A stretch of 64,000 nucleotides of DNA from the NCBI GenBank assembly GCA_963699775.1, contig CAVOVE010000015.1, positions 687,588 through 751,587 of the forward strand, written 5' to 3'. A program made the position numbers and the translations under genes. The stretch is from an uncultured Candidatus Rokubacteria bacterium (lineage in GTDB: Bacteria; JAUVQV01; DATDCY01). How positions within the stretch are numbered: position 1 is the stretch's first letter; every line of letters begins with the position of its first letter. A model generated the notes under the pieces. That model saw only the letters and a program-made list of their open reading frames with translations, was not told the DNA's origin and did no database searches. Of the stretch, positions 15,651 to 56,400 are shown piece by piece.

Positions 15651-15677
15651 GCCCCGCCCGCCGCAGACGGGCCCCTT

Positions 15678-17198
15678 TCAGCGGCCGGCCCGGGCCGGCG
15701 CGCGCTGCATGAAGAAGACGAGGACCAGGACCGAGAGCATCAGGATCGAGGTGACGAAGAAGGTGTCGTTGAAGGCGAGCATCCGCGCCTGGCGCAGCAG
15801 CTGTCCGTAGATCAGCCCGTCCGCGCCCGCACCCGACACCCCCTTGGCGACGAGGGCCGCGGCGGCTTTGCTCTTGGCCATGGTGTAGGCGGGGTCGAAG
15901 ACGCTGAGGTGGTCGACCAGCCGCGCCTGGTGGAACTGCGAGCGGCGCGCGAGCAGCGTCGTGACGAAGGCGATCCCCACGGCCCCCCCCATGTTGCGCA
16001 GCAGGTTGTACATCGAGGTCGCCTGCCCCATTTTTTCCCGCGGGATGTGGGAGAGCGTCAGCGTGGTCAGCGGGATGAAGGACAGCCCCATGCCGAGCCC
16101 GAGGGTGATCCGGGGCAGCACGAAGGTCCAGAAGTCGGCCTGCAGGTTGAACTGCGACATCAGCCAGGTGGTGATGGAGCAGATGACGATCCCGACCCCG
16201 AGGATCTTCTTCGGGTTCACCTTCTGGACGAGCTTGCCGACGATCGGCATGACGCAGAGGGTGGCGAGCCCCCCCGGCCCGAGGACGAGCCCCGCGTCGT
16301 AGGAACTGTAGCCCATCAGGCTCTGGACGTAGATCGGCAGCAGGACGATGCTGCCGAGGAGGTTGAAAAAGAGGAAGAACATGACCACCGAGCCGGTGGC
16401 GAACGTCGGGTCGCGAAACAGCCGCAGGTCGATGATCGGCTGCGCGACGTTGAGTTCGTTGATGACGAGCAGGATCAGCGCGAAGAAGGAAACGAGGGCG
16501 AAGACCACGATCAGATCCGACGAGAACCAGTCCTCCTGCTGGCCCTTGTCGAGGACCAGCTGCAGCGAGCCGAGGCCGAGGGCGAGGAAGACCAGCCCCG
16601 GGTAGTCGATGCGCATCTTCATCCGCGTCATCCAGGGGGGGTCCTGGATGACGATGGCGTTCATGACGACGGCGAGCACCCCGAGCGGGATGTTGATGTA
16701 GAAGATCCAGCGCCAGGACCAGCTGTCGGTGATCCAGCCCCCCATGATCGGCCCGACGATCGGACCGACCATGGCGCCGACGCCGAAGATCGCCATCGCG
16801 ACGCCGTGCTGCTTCGGCGGGAACGCCTCGAGCAGGATCGACTGGCTCACCGGCACGAGCCCGCCCCCGGCCAGCCCCTGCATCACCCGGAAGAAGATCA
16901 GGCTCGGGAGGCTCCAGGCCGAGCCGCAGAGAAAGGAGCTGACGGTGAACAGGACGATCGAGCCGATCTGGTAGTTCTTCCGGCCGAAGAGCCGGCTCAG
17001 CCAGCCGGACATCGGGATCACGATCGCGTTGGCCACGAGATAGGCGTTGATCGTCCAGGTGGCCTCCTCGATGCCGGCGGAGAGGGAGCCGCGGATGTGG
17101 TCGAGCGAGACGTTGACGATCGAGGTGTCGATGATCTCGATCAGCGTCGGCAGCATCACCGTGAAGGCGATGAGCCACTTGTTCCTGGAGACGGTCAT
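15678..17198 (-). CDS. emrB: MFS drug efflux transporter, DHA2/EmrB-QacA family (14 TMS)
   Basis: 506 aa; LIEIIDTSIVNVSL, RVMQGLAGGGLVP motifs typical of EmrB. Confidence 0.9.
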   Translation of the reverse strand: MTVSRNKWLIAFTVMLPTLIEIIDTSIVNVSLDHIRGSLSAGIEEATWTINAYLVANAIVIPMSGWLSRLFGRKNYQIGSIVLFTVSSFLCGSAWSLPSLIFFRVMQGLAGGGLVPVSQSILLEAFPPKQHGVAMAIFGVGAMVGPIVGPIMGGWITDSWSWRWIFYINIPLGVLAVVMNAIVIQDPPWMTRMKMRIDYPGLVFLALGLGSLQLVLDKGQQEDWFSSDLIVVFALVSFFALILLVINELNVAQPIIDLRLFRDPTFATGSVVMFFLFFNLLGSIVLLPIYVQSLMGYSSYDAGLVLGPGGLATLCVMPIVGKLVQKVNPKKILGVGIVICSITTWLMSQFNLQADFWTFVLPRITLGLGMGLSFIPLTTLTLSHIPREKMGQATSMYNLLRNMGGAVGIAFVTTLLARRSQFHQARLVDHLSVFDPAYTMAKSKAAAALVAKGVSGAGADGLIYGQLLRQARMLAFNDTFFVTSILMLSVLVLVFFMQRAPARAGR

Positions 17199-17201
17199 TC
17201 A

Positions 17202-17294
17202 GTTCCCGTGCGGGCTGCGGGGTCCTGTCGCTGCGGACCTCCGCCGTGCTCGCTTCGCTCGCGCGACGGAGACTCCTCATCGCGCCACGGGAAC
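17202..17294 (-). repeat. MITE-like repeat, copy A (93 bp; terminal inverted repeats GTTCCCGTGCG / CGCCACGGGAAC; internal hairpin GGTCC-N9-GGACC); ATG of the family replaced by GCG
   Basis: near-identical to segments at approx. 50391-50516, 53288-53410 and (inverted) 54893-55094; lies 3 nt upstream of the emrB start and inside the unterminated emrA reading frame. Confidence 0.7.
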
Positions 17295-18547
17295 GGTCGA
17301 GCGAGTTCCCAACGCCCAGAGGGCTTTTCCGGCGGCCGTCATCGGCAAGGATCGTCGGGTTGACGGACATGCCGACCCGCAGGACCTCCTCCGCCCCCTG
17401 GTTCGGGTCGAGGACGATCTTGACCGGGATGCGCTGCACGACCTTGACGTAATTGCCGCTCGCGTTTTCGGGGGGGAACAGGGAGAAGGCCGCACCGGTG
17501 CCGGCCATCAGGCTGTCGACCCGCCCGGTGAACACCCGACCGGGGATCGCGTCGACCTTGATCCGCACGGGCTGGCCGGGCTTGATGGAGTGGACCTGGG
17601 TTTCCTTGTAGTTCGCGACGACGGAGAGATCGCTCAGCGAGACGACGGCCAGCAGCGGCTGCCCGGCCTGGATCTGGTTGCCGACCTCCACCGCCTTCCT
17701 GGTGACAAACCCGTCCGCGGGTGAGACGAGGGTGGCGTAGCCGAGGGTCAGTTTCGCGATCGCGACCTGGGACTCCCGACCCTTGACCTGCTCCCCGTGC
17801 GTGCGGATGGCGGCCTCGGCCTGGCTCGAGCGCCGTCTTCTCGACCGCCACGGCCGCCCGCGCCTGGGCCGCCGCCGTCGCGTGGTTCGCGAGGGCGACC
17901 TCCGCCTGCTTCTTCAGCTCCCGCGCGGACGCCAGCGACTCCCGGGCGCTCTCGGCGGCGGTCTGCGCCTGCTCGAAGCGGTCCCGGGGGATGACCTTCT
18001 TGGCGAAGAGATTCTCCGCGCGGGTCAGGTCGTTTTGGGCCTGCCCGAGGAGCACGGTCCGGGACCGGACGTCGGCTTCCCGCACCGCCACCGCCGCGGC
18101 GAGTTCCTCGCGCGAGGCGAGCACGCGGGCGAGATTGGCCTCGGCCGCCGCGATCCGGGTTCCGGCCCCGGCGCGCAGGGCCGCGAGTTCGCCGCCCCGC
18201 AGCGACTCGGCCTGCAGCGCGGCCTCGGCCTCCACGAGCCGCTCGCGGGCAACGTCCGGGTCGAGTTCGACCAGCACCTCGCCGGCGCGAACGCGCTGGT
18301 TGACGGCGGCGTTGACCCTGGCCACGGTGCCCGGAACGCGGGAGGCGACCGAGTAGATCGTCCCCTCCACGTAGGCGTCGTCGGTCCGGATGTGCGTGTG
18401 GTTGTAGCGCAGGTACCGGTCGCGGCCAACGAGCACCGCGACGACGAGCACCCCGACGACGAGAAAGCCGATGAAACGGCGCCGGCGCGGCGGCACCGGC
18501 GCCGTTGCTGGCGGCGCCGGCAGCGGCGCCTGCGGCACATCACTCAT
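17230..18547 (-). CDS. emrA: HlyD-family membrane fusion protein (EmrA-like periplasmic adaptor); frame change near 17800, 3' end ill-defined
   Basis: N-terminus MSDVPQ...RRFIGFLVVGVLVVAVLV TM anchor plus coiled coil (ORF 17339..18616); C-terminal barrel LLAVVSLSDLSVVANYKETQVHSIKPGQPVRIKVDAIPGRVFTGRVDSL...VQRIPVKIVLDPNQ in ORF 15505..17691 frame; that frame has no stop before or within repeat copy A. Confidence 0.8.
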
Positions 18548-19878
18548 GGTCTGCCCCCTTGCCCGTGCTGCGCGCGTCACCGCCCCAGGCGGCGACGAGA
18601 TCGCTGCCGACCGCAAAGCCCAGGCGCGCCCGGGCCTCGGTCACGTCGTACCGCGCGTTGAGAAAGTTCTGCTCCGCCGTCGTCGCGAGGCTCACCGCGT
18701 CCAACACCTCCGTGGCCGTCCCGACCCCCTCGCCGTATCGCAGCTGCTGCAGGCGGAGATTTTCCTTGGCCTGCTCGACCGCCCGCTCCGTGGCGCTGAC
18801 CCGGGACCGTGCGGTCTGCAGGGAAAGAAACCCCTCCTGCACTTCGAGCTGCACGGCGTCGAGCAGCTGCTCGCGCGCCCGCTCGATCAGGATGAGCTCC
18901 CGCTCCTTCTGGCGAAGTTTTTCCCCGGTGACGCCGCCGGAGAAGATGTTGAAATCGACGCCGGCCTGGAGCACCCAGTTCCCCTCGTGCACCGTGTACT
19001 CGTTCTGGGCGAAATCGTACCCGCCGCCGACGTAGAGCTTCGGGTAGTACTCCTTGCTCGCCGCGGCGCGCCGCGCCTCGGTCGAGGCCAGCCGCGTCTG
19101 GAGCCCCTTGAGTTCGAGGCGCTCGCGCAGCGCCGCCGCAAGCGCCTCGTCCAGGCTGCTCTCGGCGCCGGCGGCCGCCGGCCCGGAAATCTCCTGCGGG
19201 TCGACCGGGAGCGCGAGCGGCCTCTGCAGCAGGCTGTTCACCTGCGCCGCGGCGAGCGCCCGGAGATTCTCCGCCTGCAGGCGCCGCTGAACGGCATCGG
19301 AGAGCCGGACCTCGGCCTGGAGCAGGTCGTTCTCCGTGATCGTCCCCTCCTCCAGCAGCGCCCGGGTGTCGTCCCGGTGCGCCTGGAAGCGGGTGACCTC
19401 CTGCTCCTGGAGGGCGAGGAGCTTTTCGGCGCGCAGGAGCCTGATGTAGCGTCAGGATGAAGCGCAGCGCGGATCGGTTTCTGGCCAGGGACGTCTCCAG
19501 CTTTTTGAAGTCGACATCGAGGACCGCCGCACGGACCGCCGCGTCCGCCCGGCCGAAATCGAAGAGCAGCTGGCGGACCCGCACGCCCAGGGAGAAGGAG
19601 TTTTGCTCGGCGACCGGGAAGGTCCGGGTGTCCACGATGGTCTGGGGCTGGTAGGCGAGCAGGGTCTCGCGGGCGTACACGTCGACGGTCGGCTTCCAGA
19701 CGCTGCCGGCGAGAATCGGCCCGGACTTGAGCACCTCTTCTTCGGCGGCGGAGACGGCGATCTCGCGGCCGGATCGTGAGATCACGGCGAGGCCTTCCGC
19801 CAGGCTGATCGCGTGCGATCGGACGGCGCCAGGCCCGAGCGCGAGCAGGCAGCACGAGAGCGCCAGCGCCTGTTTCAT
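18540..19878 (-). CDS. tolC: TolC-family outer membrane efflux protein; frame change near 19250-19400
   Basis: signal peptide MKQALALSCCLLALGPGAVRS and first OEP repeat in ORF 18577..20664 frame; second OEP repeat in ORF 18540..19241; stop overlaps emrA start. Confidence 0.8.
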
Positions 19879-31081: not shown

Positions 31082-31151
31082 ACCCCGTCATCACGACAGC
31101 GCGCGTACCCTACGAAAAATACAACGGAATGTCAAGATCGGCACCAGAGGA

Positions 31152-31230
31152 CCCGGCTCAGCCGCCGCCAAACTGCCGCAGCACACAACCGGCAATCAGC
31201 AGACCGACCCCCCAGGGCCGGAAAACATGC
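31152..31230 (-). repeat. approx. 75-bp duplicated copy of the 3' end of the small membrane protein gene at 33549..33782 (direct repeat partner at 33545-33620)
   Basis: approx. 90% nucleotide identity (gacccggctcagccg...cagcagaccgac.ccccagggccggaaaacat); the copy here would encode ...VFRPWGVGLLIAGCVLRQFGGG*. Confidence 0.7.
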
Positions 31231-31259: not shown

Positions 31260-32806
31260 CTCGCTTCTTTTCCTTCTCGCCGGCATCCATCTCGCCGAGA
31301 TACTTCGGCAACTCCAGACCCGACATCTTCGCGACCTCCTGCAGCGGCGGCAGGCTCTTGATCAGGCCGGCGAGAAAGTTGGCGGTGGACGAACCGTCCT
31401 TGCCGTCCTTGCCGCCGCCCGAATCCCAGACCGTGACCTTGTCGATCTTGATGTTCTTGATCGCCTCGACCTGGAGCGTGACCAGCTGCTCGAGTCTTCT
31501 CGACGAGCAGGAACGTGGCGGCCGCCTTGGCGTCCCCGGCGCAGCTCTTGACCAGCTCCTGGTAGCCGGCGGCCTTGCTGTCGAGCACCTGGCGGACGCC
31601 TTCGCCTCGGCCTCGTACTTGACCAGGATCGCGTCGGCCGAGCCCTTCGCCTCCCGGCGGACCTTCTCGGCCTCGGCCTCGGCGGAGATCTCGATCTTCT
31701 TCTTCTCGATCTCCTCGCTTGACGACCTCTTCCGCGGTCAGCCGCTCCTGCTCCGCCAGGTACTGGGCCTTCTGGATCTGGACCTGCGCCTCGCGCTTGG
31801 CGACCTCGCCGCGCCTGAGGGCCTCGGCCTGCTTGACCGCGTAGCTCGGCTTCGACCGCCGCGATGTCGGCCTTGGCGAGGTTCTCGCCCGTCGACCGCC
31901 GACGCCTCCTGCTGCTGGACGAAGACGCGCCGGTCGGCTTCGGCCTGCTTCTTGCCCTTGTCCGACTCGGCGACGTTCTGGGCGACCTTGATCTCCTTCT
32001 CCCGGTTCGCCTCGGCCTCGCCGATCGTCGCGGCGGACTCCTGCTGCTGGACGAAGACCCGGCGGTCGGCCTCGGCCTTCTTGCGCCCCTTCTCCGACTC
32101 GGCGACGTTCTGGGCGACCTTGATCTCCTTCTCCCGGTTCGCCACGGCCTCGCCGATCGCGCCGAGTTTCTCCTGCTGCGACAACGTCGACCCGCGCCTG
32201 GTTGATCGCCTCGGAGGCGGCCTTCTTGCCGATGCTCTCGATGTAGTCCGACTCGTCGGTGATGTCGGTGATGTTCACGTTGATCAGGTAGAGGCCGATC
32301 TTGTTCAGCTCGGGCTCCACGTTCTTGCGGATCGACTCCAGGAAGCTCTCGCGGTCCTGGTTGATCTGCTCGATCGTCAGCGAGGCGACCGTGAGACGCA
32401 GCTGGCCGAAGATGATCTCCTTCGCCATGTCCTCGATCTTCGCCGAGGTCAGGTTGAGCAGCCGCTCGGCGGCGTTGTTCATGATCGCCTTGTCGGTGCT
32501 GATGCCGACGGTGAAGGTGCTCGGCACGTTGATGCGGATGTTCTGCAGCGAGAGCGCATTCTGCAGCGGGATGCTGATGGTCATCGGCGTCAGGCTCATG
32601 TAGGCGTAGTCCTGGATCAGCGGCCAGACGAGCGTGCCGCCGCCGTGGATGCAGTTGGCCGACTGCCCCTCGCCGACCTTGCCGTAGATCACGAGGATCA
32701 TGTCCGAGGGGCAGCGCTTGTAGCGCGACGCGAGGAAGACGACGGTCGAGACGATCAGGATGACGAGCGCGGTGGCCGGGAAGATCCAGAGCGAGATGCC
32801 GAACAT
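31260..32806 (-). CDS. flotillin-like SPFH/band-7 protein (FloT/YqiK type) with internal 44-aa tandem repeat; two frame changes
   Basis: N-terminal TM plus SPFH domain (ORF 31196..32806), EA-rich coiled coil with duplicated IGEAxANREKEIKVAQNVAESxKGxKxAEADRRVFVQQQE (ORF 31738..32184), C-terminus ...EMDAGEKEKKRGA* in third frame. Confidence 0.85.
31906..32159 (-). repeat. near-perfect tandem duplication of 132-bp period (approx. 122-bp identical unit plus 10-bp spacer) inside flotillin coiled-coil region
   Basis: unit ctcctgctgctggacgaagac...ggcctcgccgatcg occurs twice with period 132 bp. Confidence 0.85.
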
Positions 32807-33406: not shown

Positions 33407-33548
33407 GAACGCCCCCTTCCCGTGATCAAGAAACCTCTGCTTGGCCCGACCGAGAACGGCAGCACGCCCGCACCATCGCCCCGTGTCGTGCTGAACCCTG
33501 CGCTGGGCGGATTCTCATGCCGCCGGAGCCCAAAGTCAAGGACCCGGC

Positions 33549-33782
33549 TCAGCCGTCGCCGAACCGCCGCAGCACAGAACCGGCAATCAGCAGACCGACT
33601 CCCCAGGGCCGGAAAACATAATAGTAGACGGAGCCGACCGCGAGCAGACCCGGAAGATTCATGTCGTGCGGGTGGAAGATGGCGTCGTAGGCGAAGGAGA
33701 CCGCGAAGAGCACCGGGATCAAAGCCAGCCAGAGGAGCGCCAGCCGGAACATCCAGCGCCCGAGGGCGCCAACCCCGCTCAT
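33549..33782 (-). CDS. small 2-TM membrane protein (77 aa), function unknown; its 3' end is duplicated downstream of flotillin
   Basis: ORF 33549..33782, hydrophobic helices; first gene of the small-protein/nfeD/flotillin module. Confidence 0.5.
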   Translation of the reverse strand: MSGVGALGRWMFRLALLWLALIPVLFAVSFAYDAIFHPHDMNLPGLLAVGSVYYYVFRPWGVGLLIAGSVLRRFGDG

Positions 33783-48451: not shown

Positions 48452-48541
48452 GCGTCACCTTCCGTTCATCATCGAATATCTGTGCGAATGTTCGCCAACC
48501 AGCTGCGCAGGCGAGTGCGGGAATTTACCTCATCCGGGGAT

Positions 48542-49553
48542 TCATAACAACCGGCCGGCAAGGGTCACCCCGGGACCGCGCGGGCCGTAGAGGCGACGTG
48601 CCAACTCGGCGAGCCAGCGGCCCCGCGCGTCGTCGCGAAGCTCGAGCCGCCCCGCCCGCGCACCGGCGAGCAGCAGCGAAATCTCCTCGCCCGGGGTTCC
48701 GAGACGCCGCAGCGTCTCAAAGAGCGCGGCGTGCTCGGGGCTCGCGCCCGTGCTCTCGGTCCACTCCCGGGCGGCCGCGGCAAACTCCGGGTCAGGCGGA
48801 AGGGGGACCTCCTCGGACGCCGCGGGGCCGAGGCCGTTGATCGCGTCGATCACCCGCTCCTTGCGCTCCTTGTACGGGCAGTGCCGCAAGTTCCGCCGGC
48901 AGGATCGCCGCGCCGATGGTGATCCGCTGGCCGCCCATGCCGACCGGGTACTCGAGTTTGGCCGTCAGCGGCTCGACCGGCAGCCCGCCCGCGAAGCGGA
49001 CCGGGACCACGGGCGCGCCCGTGGCGATGGCCATGTCGAGAAAGGCCCCGCTCATCTTCTGCACCGGGGCGCGGCAGGTGAGCGCCCGCGTCCCCTCCAC
49101 GTGGATCATCACGGACTTGCCGCCGCCGGCGATCTCGCGCGCCAGCACGCCGATGATCCGCGGCAGCTCCTCGCGGTTGCTGCGGTCGAAGTAGGTGATC
49201 ACCCCCGGGTCGTGCGCCCCCGGCCAGGCGAAGGCGTGGCGGATCAGGTTCCCGAGCCAGGTCGTGCGGTGCTCGATCTTGGCCAGGGTCACGGTGAGGA
49301 TCCCCGAGAGCGCCGAGGCGATCAGCGAGAAGAGGATCGACTCGATGCCGACCTGATGGTTCGCGAGGTAGAGGACGCCCTTCCCGCGCAGCGCGGCGAA
49401 GCCCGCGGGGTCCTCGAGGCGCACGCGCCGCACGAAGCGCCCGGCCAGACCGTAGTAGATGTCCTCGACGGGCCAGCGCCCGATCCGGTAGTAGTCGTCC
49501 CACCAGTCGCGAACCGGCGAGAGATCGAGAGTCGGCGGCCCGGCATCGCTCAC
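48542..49553 (-). CDS. 1-acyl-sn-glycerol-3-phosphate acyltransferase-like (AGPAT/PlsC family); probable C-terminal domain or partner of Pfa3
   Basis: LYLANHQVGIESIL (HxxxxD/E block), VMIHVEGTRA, FLDMAIATGAPVVPVRFAG; C-terminal 100 aa in another frame (ORF 48542..48889). Confidence 0.75.
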
Positions 49554-49559
49554 CGAGAC

Positions 49560-50433
49560 CGCCGCCGCGCGTGCGCTCGACGGTGAGCGGCCAAACCGTG
49601 AGCGGCTCGGACGGGCAGCGTGCGAGCACCAGGCTGGGGCAACCGCCAGGGGAATCCGGGCTCACGGCGGCCGAGCCCGTGTCCGCCACGACGCTCGACG
49701 GGTGCACCGCGGCTCGTGCCGCAACGTGCTCCTTCACGGCGATCTGGCCGAGCAGGTCGCCCTCGGCCGCGTAGGCCTGAGCGAGCGTGCCGGGGAGCCA
49801 GTCGCTGGCGCGGACGTCGGCGTCCGCGAGGTGCGTCGTCCCGCTCCTGTCGCTGGAGAGTCGCAGCCCGGGCACAAAGCGACGGTCGCGCAGGAAGGCG
49901 CGCCGATCGCGCGGCGGCGCGGACCCGAGCGCTCCCTTGGGGAACAGCACCTCCACCAGGTCGAGGCTCGCGATCACCCGGCCGCTGGCGATCGCCTGGA
50001 TCTGAAATCGCGGGAACCGGGGGTCGCCGTCGAAACCGGCGAAGCGCGTCTCGCAGCGCACCTCGCCTGCAGCCGGGAGCGGCGCGAACAGCCGCAGCGA
50101 CACGATGCGGTGCGGGTAGGCGACCTGGTCGGCGGGGATCTCCGGGCTCCAGTCGCAGAGTCGGTCGTGGGGAATGCCGTGGGTCAGCGCGTCGAGCAGC
50201 GCCTCGTGGAGCAGACCGCGCGGCTCGCCGCCCCCGGCGGCGTCGAGGAGCGAGGAGGAGGCGCCGGGGACGAGCTTGAGGGAGCGCAGCAGTTGGAAGG
50301 ACGGTCCGTGAAAGAGGGTCCCGGACTCGTAGGGATCCGGCGACGGGGTGGCGTTGGACGGCGGATCCCAAGGAACATCGAGCGCGCATTGTTCCCGTTC
50401 GGGCTGCGGGGTCCTGTCGCTGCGGACCTCCAT
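49560..50433 (-). CDS. PKS-type dehydratase C-terminal half (LFHGPSFQ motif) initiated from the repeat-borne ATG; probably continuous with the AGPAT domain
   Basis: MEVRSDRTPQP-EREQCALDVPWDPPSNATPSPDPYESGTLFHGPSFQLLRSLKLVPGASSSLLDAAGG...; no HxxxGxxxxP half downstream of the repeat. Confidence 0.5.
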
Positions 50434-50516
50434 GGGCTTCGCTTCGCTCACCCCCTGGAGACCTCCCCTCCGCGCCACCCCTTCGCCCAGCGCGTCCTCT
50501 GGGCAGTGACGGGGAA
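50391..50516 (-). repeat. MITE-like repeat, copy B (126 bp; TIRs GTTCCCGTTCGGG / TGACGGGGAA; contains ATG-GAGGTCCGCAGCGACAGGACCCCGCAGCC)
   Basis: same family as copy A; lies between the triple-DH gene and the DH'-AGPAT gene. Confidence 0.75.
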
Positions 50517-50529
50517 GTCCTCGTGGCTG

Positions 50530-53332
50530 CCAATCATGGAGGTTTCGTGTTCGGGGGCGAGACGCACCCGGCCCGTGGCAACGGGTTCGAAGCGGGAGAG
50601 GGATTCACTCGCGGCGTCGCGCCAGGCGAGCAGGGTCACGTCGAAGACGCCCTCCCCCGCCGGAGCAACCTCCGTCGTGAGGCGCAGCGGACCGGTGACC
50701 GGGACCCAGCGCAGCGCGCGGGCGTCTTCCACGGCCACGACCCGCATCCCGGGCGCCCGACGTACGGCAGCCCGCGCCAGGCGGTCGACCATCGACATCA
50801 GCGGCAGGGCCGGCACCGTCCAGGTCGGGCGATGGTCCTGGAGCCAGGTGTCGACGTCGGGATCGAGCATCTCTTCGCCGTCCGCAGCGCCCCCGCCGCC
50901 CTTCCCCCTTCGCCAGAGGGGGATCGCGCACGACCCGCATCGCCAAGCCCCGGGCCTCGTAGATTTTCGTGCCGTCCACCCAGAGCGAGGCGTCCGCGAC
51001 CGCGAGCGGGCCGCGGTCGTCCTCCCCGGTGCGCACCAGGTCCAGGAGCGTTGTCACCCGGCGGTTGCGCGGCAGCACCTGTCCCCGATACTTCCAGGAG
51101 TGCTGTTCGCCGAGGGCCAGCGGTTCGAACCGCGCCGCGCCGCCCCTGCTCTCGGCCATCCCCTGGTGGATCATCGCGAACTGCAGCAGTTGGAGCATCG
51201 CCTCCAGGCCGAGCGAGCCGGGCTGCACCGGGTCCTGGAAGAAGTGCGCCTTGAAGAACCAGGCCGCGGGGTCGACGTCGGTCTCGGCGCGATACCGTCC
51301 GAGCCCGGCCGGACCGCCGGCAGGCCAGATGCCGGTCACGCGGTCGAGCATCAGCAGCGGCGCGGTTTCCATCCGGGGGCCATCCCCTGCCCCGCCCTCC
51401 GCCAGGTCTGCAGATCGACCGACTCCGAGCGCACCTCGTCGAGCGCTTCGCGTTCCCCCGCAGCGGCCGGGAGGCCGACCTGTCGGGCCAGGGCTTCCGC
51501 GGGAAAGTAGCCGAAGACGGTCTTGAGGTCGTACACCGTCCGCTCGCCGACGCTGCAGACGACGTCGAAGCTTTCGATGAGCATCCCCGCCGACCGCGAG
51601 ATCCGCGTCAGCACCGCGCGGGTGCGCAGCCTGCCGTCGCCGGGGAAGACCTCGGCGAGCAGGCGGCCGTCGCCGTCGAGGTTGCGGAAACTCAGGTCGC
51701 GCTCGGACGTCAGCGGACTGCCGGCCCAGGTCGCCAGCCAGCCGCAGGGCTGCAGCGCGGCCTCGAGCAGGACGGCAAAGGGCATCGTGCGCGCGCCGTT
51801 CGCGGCGAAATACCAGGCGTCGGCGGGGATGTCGTACTCGACCTCGACCGCGCTGCCCTCGCGCATCGCCCCCATCTCGCCCTCGAGGCGCGTGACGCGC
51901 GACATGAACTGGTAGGGCGGGCCGGGGAGGCGCGCCAGCCGGCGCACGCCGTCGAAGGCGCGGTAGGCGGGGCCGAACGCCTGCCGACGGCCGCCCCCAG
52001 GCGCAGGCCAGCAGCGAGCGCCCGTCGAAGCGCAGGTCGCCCTCGGACGCGGCGGGTTCCCCGTCGACGATGCCGTCCAGCAGTTCGGGCTTCGAGTCCA
52101 GCGGCCACCCGGGGACGAGGCGCAGGCCCATGCGGCGGCAGTGGAAGGCCTTGAGCCCGTCGACCGTGCACAGGATGTCGGCGTAGAGCGTCGGCTCCGG
52201 TCCGGCGATCAGCTCCTCGACGAAGATTTCGTACACGAGTTCGCGCGAGGCCGGGGTGACCTGGCCGCGGCAGCGCATCAGGTAGGGCTCATCCGGCACC
52301 GGCTCGAAGCGCCAGCCGTCCCGCTCCAGCGTGAAGCCCAACGCGGCCAGGTAGACCGCCATCGCCTGCAGGCCGCCCTCGAACATCAGGGTCCCGGGCA
52401 TGCAGGGGTCGTTCGTGAAGTGTCCCTCGAAGAACCAGTCGCCCGGGTCGATGCGATCCACGGCGCGCAGATAGCCTCGTCCCCAGGGCCCGCCCCCGAC
52501 GGCGATCTCCGTCACCTCTTCGAGCAGCAGCAGCCGGCCGCCGGGCAGATTCGGCGTGCGGGTGTGAGTCGCAGCCCCCTCGAAGCCGGGACCGAAACAC
52601 GCGTCGGCGCGCCCGGCCGCGAAGGCCTCGAGCTGCGCGCGGGAGAGCCGCGACCGGCCCGGCGGACACCGGCGGCGGATCGACCCGCGCCCCGTCCCGC
52701 GGCTCGAGCGGTCGCCGGGTCCCAGAGCACGCCCGCCGACCCGGCGAGTTCCTCGTCGGTGAAGAAGCCGGCCTGCCCGCCCCGCACGGTGAGGCGGGGG
52801 ATACCCGGCGACGGTGCAGGTGGAGTGGAAGAAGAAGAGACGGACCGCCCCCTGCTGCGCGTGGCCGTCGACGCCGATCTCGTAGCGCAGGGTTTCGCCG
52901 GCGACGGGGAGCCCGCCGTGGTAGGTCAGCTCGCAGCCGAGCAGCCGGTAGACGCGCTCCCCGCGGTTGAGGGCGTCGACGCCGAGCCAGGAGACGAGCA
53001 GCAGGTCGGCCTGCCCGGCCTCGATCATGATCCCCGCGGGCATGCGGTTGTCGTGCAGGTACCAGGCGCCCGCCGCGACGTCGGTCTCCGTCCAGACGGT
53101 GCCGGTGCCCAGCGAGAGGGGTTCGGCCTCCAGGCGCACGACGCGATCGGCGAGCAGCAGCGGCGGTTCGGGCATGCGGACGCGCCGGGTGCAGGCCGTC
53201 CTGGTCGGCGAATGCGGGACCGAAGATTTGGGAGAGTCGTCCGCTGGCGTGGATTTCGAGGGCGCGCCTGTCGAACACAATACCGTCCGTTGACCGTGCA
53301 GGCTGCGGGGTCCTGTCGCTGCGGACCTCCAT
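50530..53332 (-). CDS. Pfa3-like segment: three FabA-like hot-dog dehydratase folds; starts with the repeat-encoded MEVRSDRTPQP
   Basis: FDRRALEIHASGRLSQIFGPAF; MPAGIMIEAGQADLLLVSWLGVDALNRGERVYRLLG; DPGDWFFEGHFTNDPCMPGTLMFEGGLQAMA; DVDPAAWFFKAHFFQDPVQPGSLGLEAMLQLL; frame change near 53200. Confidence 0.75.
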
Positions 53333-53410
53333 CGTGCTCGCTTCGCTCCGCCGCGGAGACCTCCCCTCCGCGCCACCCCTCGCCGGAAGCGTCTCCAGAA
53401 GGAGCGTGTT
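53288..53410 (-). repeat. MITE-like repeat, copy C (degenerate ends; possible 7-bp CGTGCAG flanking duplication)
   Basis: same core as copies A/B; supplies ATG and first 10 codons of the triple-DH gene. Confidence 0.65.
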
Positions 53411-53419
53411 CTCGTGCAG

Positions 53420-54944
53420 TCAGCAGCGTCGCCGCCGCACGTTCGCGCAATTCCAGGAATTGGCGGTGCGCGGCAGCCTGATCATCGAGGAACGCGCGGT
53501 GCACGCGCGTCGCCATGGCGACCTGGGCCGCGATCTGCGCCAGGGCCTCCTGGGCGTGGCTGCCGGCGCGCACGGCGGACGGCGCCGCAGGGCGGGGCGC
53601 GGCCGGCAGCCCCGGGGACATCTTCCTCGCACACGCGCCAGCCGAGGAGCAGGCGGCCATCGTCGCTGTCGACGAGGAGTCGCTCCGCGCCCGGCGATGG
53701 CAAGCGCCATCTGCCGCAGCGACCGGCGCCAGTGCCGGAGCCGGCGGCTGCGTGATCGGCGCCACAGGCAGCGGCGGAAGCACGGGAGGGGGGCGGTGCG
53801 CCTGGTATTCCGCCGCCGGCTCCGCGCTGGACGCCGCTGCCGGGAACGCGACGGCGCACCTGTCCGCGGCGCGCACGCTGACGCGGACGCGCTGCCCGCC
53901 GAGGGCCCGGATATCGAGATCGGCGCGACGCTCGCCCGTCCACTCCGCGCCGCCGGGGTGGCGCCCGGCGGCGCAGGCGACCACCGCCGCCAGCACGCGC
54001 ACCAGCCCGAACGCGGCGTGGGCGCGTCCGAAGCGAGCGGCGACCTGGGACATCCCCGAAATGCTTCGGCCGCATCGCAGCTCGACCGCTCAGCGTCGCC
54101 GGCATCGCTCACCTCATCGATCAGCGCGAGGACGCGGTCGCCGTCGCGACGCGCGTCCGACAGGCGCTTGAGAACCATGACGACGGCGCGCGTCGCCGGA
54201 CGGGCCGGGCAGGCCGAGCTCGAGCGCCGCGGCCTCGTGCACCGGGTCGCAGGAGAAATCGGCCGCCCCCGCCAGCGCCAGATCGAGTTCCCCGGCGCGC
54301 AGGGCGCGCAACGCCGCCTGCAGCGCTCTGACCCCCGAGAGTTCCTCGGCCGACATCGTGAAGCCCGGCCCCGCCAGGTCGAACTGGACATTCAGGCGGT
54401 TTGCCGGGAGATTGGGCATGGTTCCGAGAACCCCGGCGCCGGTAAGCGCCGGAGACAGGATTTCGGCGGCGCGGCGAATCCAGAATTCGTCCGTGACGCC
54501 CCAGGCCGCGGCGATGTCCGGCAGGCGCCAGCGAGCCCCGTAGCGGGCCACGGCGGGATCGCACCCGACGCCGATCATCACGCCGGAGCGCTCGGACGGC
54601 GGCAGGGAAACGCCGGCCAGCGCTTCACGCGCCGCCGCCATGGTCCAGATCTGCTGCGGCAGAGCGGCGGCCAGATCGCTCGGCGGGAAGCGCGTGCCGA
54701 CCACCGGGAGCGAAATGGTCGTGGCGCAATGTGTCGTCGGGTCGGCAACGGCAAAGAGCGCGGTCGCGAAATCCGCCACCGACCGCCCTGCGCCGACCGC
54801 GGCGCCGATCCCGACCACAGCCACCGCGTGCTCTGAGGATATATTTGAAATCAGTCCCGCCGCCACCGGAACACCGGGAGCTGGCACGGTGCGAAGGGGT
54901 GGCGCGGAGGGGAGGTCTCCGTCGACGGAACGAAGTGAGCACAA
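53420..54944 (-). CDS. Pfa3-like chain-length-factor (CLF, KS-like without active-site Cys) segment; N-terminal approx. 15 codons (SLRSVDGDLPSAPPL) encoded by repeat copy D
   Basis: HAVAVVGIGAAVG, MPNLPANRLNVQFDLAGPGF, GELDLALAGAADFSCDPVHEAAALELG (ORF 54114..54944); continuation in ORF 53420..54391. Confidence 0.7.
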
Positions 54945-55094
54945 TGAGGAAGAGCCAGCCTCGCTTCCCGGCGCGCGATCCGATCGCTGGTCGAACGAGA
55001 CCGTGGGCCCTCAAAGCAGGGAATTCCCAGTTGACAAGAGAGCGAATGGTCGAGTTGGGTGGATGGTCCGGAGCGACAGGACCCCGGAGCCCGC
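54893..55094 (+). repeat. MITE-like repeat, copy D (inverted relative to copies A-C, approx. 200 bp with approx. 115-bp internal insertion)
   Basis: arms GAAGGGGTGGCGCGGAGGGGAGGTCTCC and GGTCCGGAGCGACAGGACCCCGGAGCCCGCAC match the family; sits in the KS-CLF linker. Confidence 0.65.
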
Positions 55095-55099
55095 ACATT

Positions 55100-56400
55100 A
55101 TCCCCCGGTTCCTCTACGATCAGATGTGCGTTGGCGCCGCCGAACCCGAAAGCGCTCACGGCCGCCCGACGCACGTCGCGGCTCTCCCAGGGCTCCGCTT
55201 CGCGCAGCAGGCGCAGGGGCGTGCCCGCCGGCAGCGGCAGCGGGTCGTCGGCGTGAAGCGTCGGCGGCCTCACGCCGGCGGCCATGGCGCCGATGACCTT
55301 GAGCAGGCCGGCAATCCCCGCGGCGGTCACGGCGTGACCGAAGTTGGATTTGAGCGAACCGATGGGGAGGTCCGCGGCTCCCGCGAAAACGCGCGCCGAG
55401 CTGCGCACCTCGACGGCGTCCCCGACCGCCGTCCCGGTTGCGTGGCACTCGAGCAGCGAGATGTCGGCCGGGAGCAGCCCCGCCATCGCGTAGGCCGCCC
55501 GCATCGCGCGCTCCTGCCCCTCCTCGCTCGGCGCCAGCAGACCGCGGCCCCGCCCGTCGTTGGAGAGCCCGATGCCCCGGATCACCCCGAAAATCCGGTC
55601 GCCTGCGGCCTGGGCGTCCTCGAGGCGCTTGAGGGCGACGGCGCCCGCCCCTTCGGCCGGCAGCAGGCCGTCGGCCTCGCGGTGAAACGGCCGGCTGCGC
55701 CCGCTGCGGCTGAGCGCCTGCAGCGCGGTGAAGCCGACGTGGATGAACAGGTCGTCCGCGGCGTTGACCGCGCCCGCGAGCGCCACGTCGGCCCGGCGGT
55801 CGTGCAGCAAGATCGCACGCGAGCTTGATCGCGTAGAGCGAGGAGGCGCAGGCGGCGTCCAGCGCGAACGCGGGTCCCAGGCCGAGCGCCCGCGCGACGA
55901 GGTGGGCCGGCAGACCCGGACATGAAACGGTTGCTCGCATCGACCGGGCCGATCCCGGCGGCCGCGTCGGCGAGCCGGTGACCGAACCAGGCCCGTTCGG
56001 CGAATCGGGCAAACGCCGCCGACGGAAAGGAGAGATTGCCGAAGACCGCCGCCACGCGCGGCCCGCCCTCGACCCCGGCCTCGCGCAGCGCTTCCCGCGA
56101 CACGTGCAGCAGCCAGCGCGCCAGCGGATCGAACTGCTGCACCTGCTCCGCCGGCACCGCGAATCCCGAGGGGTCGAACACCGCATCGAAGCCCTCGACA
56201 TACCCGCCGCGATCGGTCCAGGCGGCGTCCGTGCCGGAGGAGCCGCCGGCGCAGACCAGCTCGCGCCGCAGCCGCCACCGACCCGGCGGGGCGCGGGATA
56301 CGAGGTCGGCACCCGTCGCGCACGCGCTCCCAGAGCGCGGCGGGATGCAACGCGCCGGGCAGCACGCAGGCCCGACCGACGATCGCGATCGGGGGAAAGT

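Follow-up and report, generated by a model that had tools for sequence, protein, structure and literature searches.

Repetitive extragenic palindromic (REP) sequences, bacterial interspersed mosaic elements (BIMEs), REPINs and the palindrome-associated elements derived from the insertion sequences (IS) IS200/IS605 are mobilized by HUH (Y1) transposases. Integron attC sites and chromosomal cassette repeats are imperfect palindromes between genes, of which a single DNA strand folds. Chunjie of Geobacter uraniireducens is a prokaryotic miniature inverted-repeat transposable element (MITE) inserted within operons (reviewed in PMC10969869), and Rickettsia palindromic elements (RPEs) are palindromic repeats in frame inside protein-coding genes, to which they add a peptide segment (PMC10969869). 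Here, we analyze copy A, a 93-nt sequence between emrA and emrB in a 64-kb stretch of DNA from an uncultured Candidatus Rokubacteria bacterium (contig CAVOVE010000015.1; the whole stretch is called the window). With a probability of about 0.7, copy A belongs to a lineage-restricted family of noncoding, imperfectly palindromic interspersed repeats of ~95 to 115 bp, MITE/REP-like in kind, that occurs in Rokubacteria-like (Candidatus Rokuibacteriota) genomes, spreads independently of the neighboring genes and sits in emrAB as a passenger. The family appears to be previously undescribed and in kind an ordinary small bacterial repeat (MITE/REP-like); in the literature, its core sequence was found in no paper, and nothing relevant was found on Rokubacteria repeats.

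Copy A is a member of a dispersed repeat family

An earlier reading of the bare letters (the sequence-only reading) had placed copy A on the minus strand in the emrA-emrB intercistronic spacer, and its coordinates hold. From 17294 down to 17202 this strand reads GTTCCCGTGGCGCGATGAGGAGTCTCCGTCGCGCGAGCGAAGCGAGCACGGCGGAGGTCCGCAGCGACAGGACCCCGCAGCCCGCACGGGAAC, followed by TGA and then by the emrB ATG (17198 to 17196), so the element ends 3 nt from the start codon.

17202 to 17294, minus strand: copy A, repeat core (GTTCCCGTGGCGCG...CGCACGGGAAC); nhmmer match at 17288 to 17200, E = 2e-18; aligned with 34 other copies
15678 to 17198, minus strand: emrB, open reading frame (ORF) for a DHA2-family MFS efflux permease of 506 aa; homologues with PF07690/PF00083/PF06609

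A profile hidden Markov model of the family was built from 35 aligned members, copy A among them, and run with nhmmer. Against this profile, copy A scores E = 2e-18, a similarity far beyond chance. The profile finds exactly four copies in the window: A, B and C in direct orientation and D in the opposite one. A repeat finder grouped 17206 to 17288, 50395 to 50477 and 53294 to 53376 at 73 to 82% identity over 83 nt and gave 54884 to 55096 as inverted relative to all three direct copies.

Dispersal was counted by a single exact scan for the 22-nt core (GGTCCGNAGCGACAGGACCCCG) over one-genome-per-species contigs, which returned 47 loci. About 22 of them lie in the metagenome-assembled genome (MAG) JANOHV01 (Candidatus Rokuibacteriota) and about 22 in the unclassified MAG CAZEOK01; the few others lie on contigs assigned to Nitrospirota, Anaerolineaceae or Legionella, which we infer to be mis-binned. 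Across the sequence gathered, the family profile matches 65 times. The sequence-only reading had taken the repeat as a dispersed element, to be given up for a locally duplicated leader if a genome search found it only at these loci; the core occurs at 47 further loci in other genomes, and the dispersed element is upheld. A metagenome scan with EmrB returned only relatives at ≤72% identity, and the profile finds 0 copies in 80 such loci. Viral contigs and a plasmid collection gave no match to the element, and exact look-ups of the window EmrB and of protein P0001 returned no record.

The central hairpin varies with compensation

The element measures ~95 to 115 bp, or ~213 bp in a long form, and carries no transposase gene of its own. 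In the sense of the window minus strand, its consensus is (GAGGAC-N4-6-C)TGGGCGGAGGGGTGGCGCGGAGGGGAGGTCTCC-AKCG-GCGGA-N-CGNAG-N'-GAGCA-CGATGGAGGTCCGCAGCGACAGGACCCCGCAGCCYGCACGGGAAC. It is laid out as a G-rich 5' arm (..CTGGGCGGAGGGGTGGCGCGGAGGGGAGG), a variable central hairpin, an invariant GGTCC-N9-GGACC hairpin and a conserved 3' end (CCCCGCAGCCYGCACGGGAAC), with conservation setting in weakly ~20 nt before GTGGCGCG and ending at GGGAAC. In copy A, these parts are found as follows.

17239 to 17271, minus strand: central hairpin, stem CTCCGTCG (17271 to 17264) / CGGCGGAG (17246 to 17239), apical mini-hairpin GCGAAGC at 17258 to 17252
17221 to 17239, minus strand: invariant 3' hairpin GGTCC-GCAGCGACA-GGACC, identical in all 35 aligned copies
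17202 to 17222, minus strand: 3'-terminal motif CCCCGCAGCCCGCACGGGAAC, with family conservation up to GGGAAC and a Shine-Dalgarno-like GGGAA 5 nt before the emrB ATG

The central hairpin (CUCCAUCG/CGAUGGAG) is the sole variable segment, and its changes are compensated. Over the 35 copies, 93% of cells are paired and 31 cells show double changes, compared with 12.8 in shuffles (0 of 500 shuffles reach 31); structures slid along the alignment as controls are only 34 to 45% paired. The GGTCC-N9-GGACC hairpin is invariant and hence neutral on covariation. The stem pair containing the T of the "ATG" is AU in 22 copies, GC in 8 and GU in 4, and the pair closing the apical C-GNA-G loop is CG in 16, GC in 13 and AU in 4. 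On the strand shown, 44 wobbles are G-T or T-G (13 without one invariant pair) versus 5 that are A-C, and this excess suggests that one particular strand folds. The apical N-C-GNA-G-N' reads GCGNAGC in 13 copies, among them copy A with GCGAAGC; GCGNAGC is the motif of an extraordinarily stable DNA mini-hairpin (PMC13037366; d(GNA) loops, PMC3201870).

Several size variants were recognized. Short forms lacking the central hairpin are deleted between two GGAGGTC direct repeats (L007, L008, L028, L046), other forms carry a 21-nt extra hairpin (L016, L025, L131), and a long form with a ~113-nt extra segment is common to window copy D and L009. This segment sits between the central and 3' hairpins (window 54940 to 55066; L009:7164-7272) and is 79% identical at the two unrelated loci. 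Because length also varies by 1 nt within the hairpin, the element is not a conserved coding unit, and a coding mini-gene was dropped as a candidate. Hammerhead, twister and HDV-like ribozymes and a G-quadruplex were dropped as well, as no supporting pattern was seen by eye.

The ATG found within most copies, together with GGAGG strings, could mark the element as a translation-signal module (stop, ribosome-binding site, ATG) that splits and restarts genes, in which case the emrAB copy would be degenerate with a decayed ATG. The sequence-only reading had likewise called copy A's own ATG mutated. At the ATG position of copies B and C, copy A does read GCG (17244 to 17242), but this triplet is part of the 3' strand of the covarying stem. 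Copies B and C have CTCCAGGG.../...CCCATGGAG or a similar stem; copy A has CTCCGTCG/CGGCGGAG, and its change from ATG to GCG is matched by an A-to-G change on the opposite stem strand plus one U·G pair, so that CCGUCG/CGGCGG is a compensated variant. The same position reads ACG, GTG or CTG in other copies. The GCG of copy A thus speaks for a hairpin and not for a decayed start codon. With copies in both orientations, and with the reading frames of the pfa copies described below, a translation-signal module is very unlikely.

A covarying hairpin may also point to RNA. A structured cis-acting RNA (regulator, mRNA stabilizer or attenuator) selected at emrAB would set the relative output of EmrA and EmrB; REP hairpins have such a role in some E. 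coli operons. The covariation of the central hairpin fits such a role, as do the excess of G-U over A-C pairs on the emrAB sense strand, the 3' end of sense copies, which often lies 1 to 10 nt from the downstream start codon, and the terminal helix predicted for copy A, which overlaps the Shine-Dalgarno-like GGGAA. Orientation, scored with a crude self-trained codon-bias gene finder, tells against it: among copies between co-directional genes, 18 are sense and 18 of the 36 are antisense to their neighbors, with few copies between divergent or convergent genes, and this equal use argues against an RNA that needs one reading direction. The 3' end of the element usually lies 1 to 50 nt from a gene boundary, which is a start codon for sense copies and a stop codon for antisense copies. 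Copies also lie inside ORFs, and the closest relative has an emrAB without the element and with only a 27-nt spacer. No Rfam covariance model matched any copy; the scan of the whole window at gathering thresholds gave only three tRNAs, and regions 17100 to 17450 and 53200 to 55300 (copies A, C and D), scanned at E ≤ 10, gave only chance matches that were off the element or far below threshold. A scan for sigma-70 promoters and intrinsic terminators around copy A found none. Weighing these points and the folding energies given below, we consider a selected cis-acting RNA unlikely. The GNA mini-hairpin motif and the equal use of both orientations favor a hairpin acting at the DNA level over one acting in RNA, and a single-stranded-DNA hairpin as used by HUH-type transposases would fit.

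The emrA-emrB junction in relatives

Seven orthologous emrA-emrB junctions were reached via EmrB homologues at 88 to 100% identity, and a further contig gave the length of its gap only.

L049 (GCA_041643095.1): TAA, 29 nt, GTG; element absent
L134: TAG, 29 nt, ATG; element absent
L133/L132: TAG, gcaCCCCGCCGCCTGCACGGGAAACTG, ATG; element absent, spacer of 27 nt
L048: TGA, 54 nt, element, 9 nt, GTG
Window: TGA, ~20 nt, element with its extension, TGA, ATG
L135: >200 nt of other repeat families, without a copy of copy A's family
L136: 553 nt, consisting of other families and a canonical copy that ends 50 nt before GTG
Contig with P0003: emrA-emrB gap of 427 nt

In a neighbor-joining tree of emrB, the sister of the window is L133, which is empty and 95.5% identical in nucleotide sequence, followed in order by L135/L136, L134 (empty), L048 (filled) and L049 (empty). 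With filled and empty junctions among relatives, the spacer emerges as a hot spot at which several small repeats are gained and lost. The sequence-only reading had described the element as fixed here in a different functional context, which does not hold when sister L133, L134 and L049 have only a 27- to 29-nt spacer in its place. Judged by these junctions, copy A is polymorphic and apparently dispensable, no fixed operon part, and a passenger rather than a built-in control element. Spacers of this kind, in which repeats turn over among lineages with 88 to 95% identical emrB DNA, are useful strain markers.

The element had also been said to occupy the entire junction and to end in perfect 12-bp terminal inverted repeats. 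Neither statement is borne out.

17339 to 17341, minus strand: probable true emrA stop TGA, by alignment the counterpart of TGA-cggc in L048 and of the TAG/TAA in L133, L134 and L049
17295 to 17318, minus strand: 5' extension of copy A, in which TGGGCG matches the family ...CTGGGCG, with weak 5' conservation ~20 nt upstream of GTGGCGCG; empty junctions were compared

The emrA stop at 17341 to 17339 is out of frame in the window because of a 1-nt deletion just upstream. Between it and 17294, 44 nt remain, so the junction is only partly filled by the 93 nt; part of the remainder (17318 to 17295) is copy A's own 5' extension with an extra small hairpin. This hairpin, GGGAAC-N10-GTTCCC (17318 to 17289, with the GTTCCC arm at 17294 to 17289), stands in place of consensus GAGGG. 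Of the proposed terminal repeat, 9 bp are perfect (GTTCCCGTG/CACGGGAAC), beyond which GCG faces CGG. The perfect 9-bp GTTCCCGTG end is specific to copy A, and what had been taken as the outer repeat arm is the 3' half of its private hairpin. The outer GTTCCC of the 5' arm is missing from copies B, C and D, and the family consensus there is GAGGGG. Nor is the 12-mer alone unusual, with 19 matches at ≤2 mismatches versus 17.7 expected. Copy A is a diverged family member, with a 5' arm of GATGAGGA-G compared to the consensus GGAGGGGAGG.

The empty alleles carry GGGAG or GGGAA 5 to 7 nt before the start codon, likely a ribosome-binding site. In the window, the GGGAA bases are the last bases of the element (GGGAAC-TGA-ATG), and the predicted minimum-free-energy fold of the copy A transcript contains a 9-bp terminal helix that pairs GGGAAC. 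Copy A would have been gained (or kept) in the window lineage directly upstream of these ribosome-binding bases and the start codon, and would be co-transcribed with emrAB, an operon that presumably works without it in sister lineages. The helix GUUCCCGUG/CACGGGAAC would bury GGGAA in the mRNA and could dampen or uncouple emrB translation. An effect of the RNA hairpin on coupling or stability, as the sequence-only reading had proposed, is possible; our best guess is a co-transcribed passenger that at most lowers or uncouples emrB translation. The locus reveals no new regulatory principle for emrAB.

Copies in the pfa cluster

The other window copies lie in a polyunsaturated fatty acid (PUFA) synthase-like cluster at 48.8 to 62 kb on the minus strand of this Rokubacteria-like genome. 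The cluster holds KR, PS-DH, KS, CLF, two FabA-type DH and a DH-like domain and a 1-acyl-glycerol-3-phosphate acyltransferase, and its domain order resembles that of myxobacterial pfa3. It was compared with the orthologous clusters L130 (~93% nt identity) and L131 (~88%), using the distance in nt between coding anchors on either side of each site.

50390 to 50485, minus strand: copy B, PfaC-like gene, in the linker that joins its FabA-type DH domains to the next, DH-like domain; anchor distance 221 in the window, 227 in L130 and 132 in L131
53291 to 53380, minus strand: copy C, linker between the CLF and FabA-DH domains, window copy 2 nt short; anchor distance 139 in the window, 141 in L130 and 210 in L131
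54884 to 55100, plus strand: copy D, KS-CLF linker, antisense to the pfa genes, long form with the ~113-nt extra within 54940 to 55066; anchor distance 319 in the window, 206 in L130 and 155 in L131

All three genomes have copy C; in L130 and L131 an open frame (...GEGVARRGGL...MEVRSDRTPQP...) continues across it into the FabA-type DH. At site D, L130 has a short form in one frame from KS to CLF (...AHLIVEEPGDHVRAAGSCRCGPP...GDLPSAPPLRTVPS...AVAVVGIG). Its central hairpin is also different from that of the window copy, and these differences hint at replacement of the copy or at gene conversion. No copy was detected at site D of L131 with nhmmer at E < 10 (a degenerate remnant is possible), and KS-CLF is again one ORF. 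The protein P0123 of a further relative reads from the DH end across copy B into ...PWDPP...LFHGPSFQ, L131 retains at site B only a 29-nt 5' remnant in a continuous ORF, and in the element-free Myxococcales homologue P0122 the regions flanking site B are directly joined. Read-through and anchor lengths together identify the pfa copies as linker insertions between domains of a PfaC-like ORF; translation of these copies is probable, as in RPEs.

These frames bear directly on the translation-signal module and on the proposal of the sequence-only reading that the element provides start codons in the pfa cluster. In favor of restarts, the gene call P0121 of L130 begins at the element ATG (MEVRSDRTPQP), and the frame preceding copy B hits a stop in the window and in L130 alike, while the ATG frame enters the next domain. 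Against them, single ORFs cross C in L130 and L131, D in L130 and B in P0123, the corresponding domains are fused in P0122, and the L130-L131 differences at D and C, 51 and 69 nt, are multiples of 3. Window deviations and frame breaks coincide with single-base deletions relative to L130. We conclude that the start-codon role is not supported, that the broken pfa frames of the window are probably 1-nt assembly errors, and that gene calls starting at the element ATG, such as P0121, are most likely artifacts of indel-rich long-read assemblies. Site B differs in one respect: two assemblies (window and L130, 6 nt apart) agree on the upstream stop and frame offset, and their differences to L131, 89 and 95 nt, are not multiples of 3, each being 1 to 2 nt out of frame. 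A true gene split may thus exist at site B.

An extra copy in L130 (9923 to 10012) follows the acyltransferase gene and is absent from the window (~48534 to 48564; site E), where the empty allele has no 22-nt 3'-end motif. Across the window, L130 and L131, presence/absence polymorphism is seen at pfa sites B, D and E. An AT-rich stretch (GATTTCAAATATATCC, window ~54845 to 54860) lies between copy D and the CLF start in 70% GC DNA and is missing from L131.

Assembly quality

Compared with the Illumina-based relative L133, the window emrA carries an uncompensated 1-nt insertion at 17826 and a second 1-nt indel (a loss) near 17342, so the emrA frame is not directly readable in the window. An outer-membrane-factor gene shows an uncompensated 1-nt indel at 19449 in the same comparison, and frame changes recur across the pfa genes from 48.8 to 62 kb. 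The window, whose source contig measures 1.46 Mb, probably derives from an indel-rich long-read assembly in which ORF boundaries are unreliable. For annotation, the element is misleading in itself, as gene callers choose the ATG inside it as a start and break a PfaC-like PUFA synthase apart; combined with 1-nt assembly errors, it gives rise in Rokubacteria MAGs to spurious "split genes" and spurious intergenic regulators.

Mobility and candidate mechanism

The proposed history is that the family would spread and decay independently of neighboring genes, accumulating in short gene-boundary spacers and inter-domain linkers, where harm would be small. The element would be mobilized in trans. Most likely it would move as one folded strand of DNA, and the presumed handler would be a hairpin-recognizing HUH/Y1-type enzyme (IS200/IS605- or RAYT-like). 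In keeping with a MITE, the element is small, lacks a transposase gene of its own, and is multi-copy, dispersed and polymorphic in presence at orthologous sites. In keeping with REP/REPIN or IS200/IS605-type elements, it has a conserved imperfect-palindrome hairpin, which covaries and bears the GNA mini-hairpin. Decay by deletion is seen in L131, which retains the first 29 nt of copy B, and in 5'-truncated copies in L017, L019 and L044.

Several results weigh against this reading. No consistent target-site duplication of ≥4 bp was found at any boundary offset (k = 3 to 9, 44 copies), contrary to what marks a MITE, and the consensus ends GGGCGGAGGGG / CCCCGCAGCCT are only loose inverted repeats, matching at ~8 of 11 positions. 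Partner genes were sought in the 64-kb window and in loci with 8-kb flanks, with ~0.8 Mb of flanks covered. There, no transposase or RAYT gene was seen beside any copy and no autonomous IS with matching ends was seen in the flanks; the sole ORF that lies between inverted copies (L033), judged from its sequence and without a Pfam scan, resembles a small 4Fe-4S ferredoxin-type protein and not a transposase. Copy A folds with no better energy than shuffled sequence (z = -0.5), which counts against a cis-acting RNA as well. For copy A, folded as RNA on either strand and as DNA, and for five canonical copies folded as DNA on either strand, z-scores run from -2.0 to +1.0, which is not distinctive at 70% GC. 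The empty L133 spacer carries CCCCGCCGCCTGCACGGGAAAC, ~20 of 22 nt identical to the element 3' end, and because of this resemblance gain by insertion and loss by deletion are indistinguishable; either history needs at least two events on the emrB tree.

The motif in the empty junctions leads to another explanation, in which the element is a recombination target or a site-specific cassette end (attC-like or IS110/IS1111-type), the 22-nt 3' motif being pre-existing and the rest inserted beside it. The distance from GCAC to the start codon is exactly 9 nt in both window copy A and the L048 copy, although their central hairpins and 5' flanks are strongly different, and several repeat families pile up at this junction. 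At site E, filled in L130, the empty window allele lacks the motif. Other "solo" motifs are 5'-truncated copies that retain part of the 3' hairpin, which fits decay, the copies are dispersed singly and not in cassette arrays, and no integrase or IS110-type gene was seen near them. On balance, we regard a recombination target or cassette end as quite unlikely. The empty emrAB alleles may be either untouched specific insertion sites that resemble the element end or solo remnants after deletion.

A related idea is that the element is a hairpin-guided mobile unit of single-stranded DNA, homing to a ~22-nt site identical to its own 3' end and arriving 5' of CCCCGCNGCCNGCACGGGAA, whose fast-changing yet always compensated central hairpin might carry specificity information and whose open, length-compatible sequence would colonize megasynthase linkers. 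We think this improbable. If true, it would account for the element having reached one base of the emrAB spacer more than once independently, and would make the element a natural supplier of new PUFA synthase linkers or a cause of gene fission there.

Companion repeats

Two further repeat families share spacers with the element. One, unrelated and ~200 nt long with palindromic ends (GGCGGTGACGGGACGG...), directly abuts the element's 5' end at several loci. The other measures ~145 nt; the emrAB spacers of L135 and L136 contain it, as do further loci, and the window has a 29-nt fragment of it immediately 3' of the emrB stop.

Second family, ~200 nt: L044:1403-1637, L026:7632-7832, L032:3528-3721, L004:298-491, L039:870-1031
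Third family, ~145 nt: L136:1075-1219, L135:1341-1479, L037:4092-4231, L013:372-501; piece at window 15659 to 15687

Elsewhere, the window contains an 81-nt repeat pair of 94% identity (31148 to 31228 and 33539 to 33619) close to three tRNA genes and a 132-nt tandem duplication of 89% (31897 to 32160). An undescribed small-repeat family and at least two companion families are thus added for a poorly known, uncultured phylum.

Comparison with known systems

The element shares with MITEs such as Chunjie its small size, noncoding and multi-copy nature, restriction to a lineage, long imperfect hairpin and mostly intergenic location, and also the size variants, the truncated copies and insertion between operon genes that leaves the genes intact. 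It differs in having no regular target-site duplication, loose terminal inverted repeats and no identified parent IS, and it has no sequence similarity to any described family.

With REP, BIME and REPIN sequences it has in common a hairpin-centered design, the lack of target-site duplications, a location near gene ends and spacers shared with other repeat families; the resemblance to BIME-like mosaics arises because at least two other families (~200 nt and ~145 nt) abut it or share its spacers. The strand asymmetry of the wobble pairs and the DNA-type GNA mini-hairpin are further likenesses to REP and IS200/IS605 elements. The element is, however, ~100 bp with three helices, whereas a REP is a single palindrome of 20 to 40 nt; no GTAG-type 5' tetranucleotide was noticed, no RAYT/TnpA gene was found in the 8-kb flanks, and copies are tolerated inside ORFs as well. 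From the lack of target-site duplications, the hairpin core, the strand asymmetry and a possible site preference (the 3'-end motif is present at the empty emrAB site and absent from empty site E), an IS200/IS605/RAYT type would fit better than a DDE-type MITE, a resemblance that falls short of established membership in either.

Like attC sites, the element is an imperfect palindrome between genes within the range of ~60 to 140 bp, with single-strand folding. Identity with attC was dropped because the arrangement is wrong: single copies are dispersed over many contigs in both orientations, without co-oriented arrays and with no integrase nearby.

In relation to RPEs, there is no sequence relationship, the phylum is different, and most copies of the present family are intergenic, copy A itself being intercistronic and outside this comparison. 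The likeness lies in copies B, C and D, which probably sit in frame in linkers of a PfaC-like synthase, with continuous ORFs through C (L130 and L131), D (L130) and B (P0123), albeit in error-prone assemblies. With these copies, palindromic repeats accepted in frame within enzymes would be known from a second, independent case.

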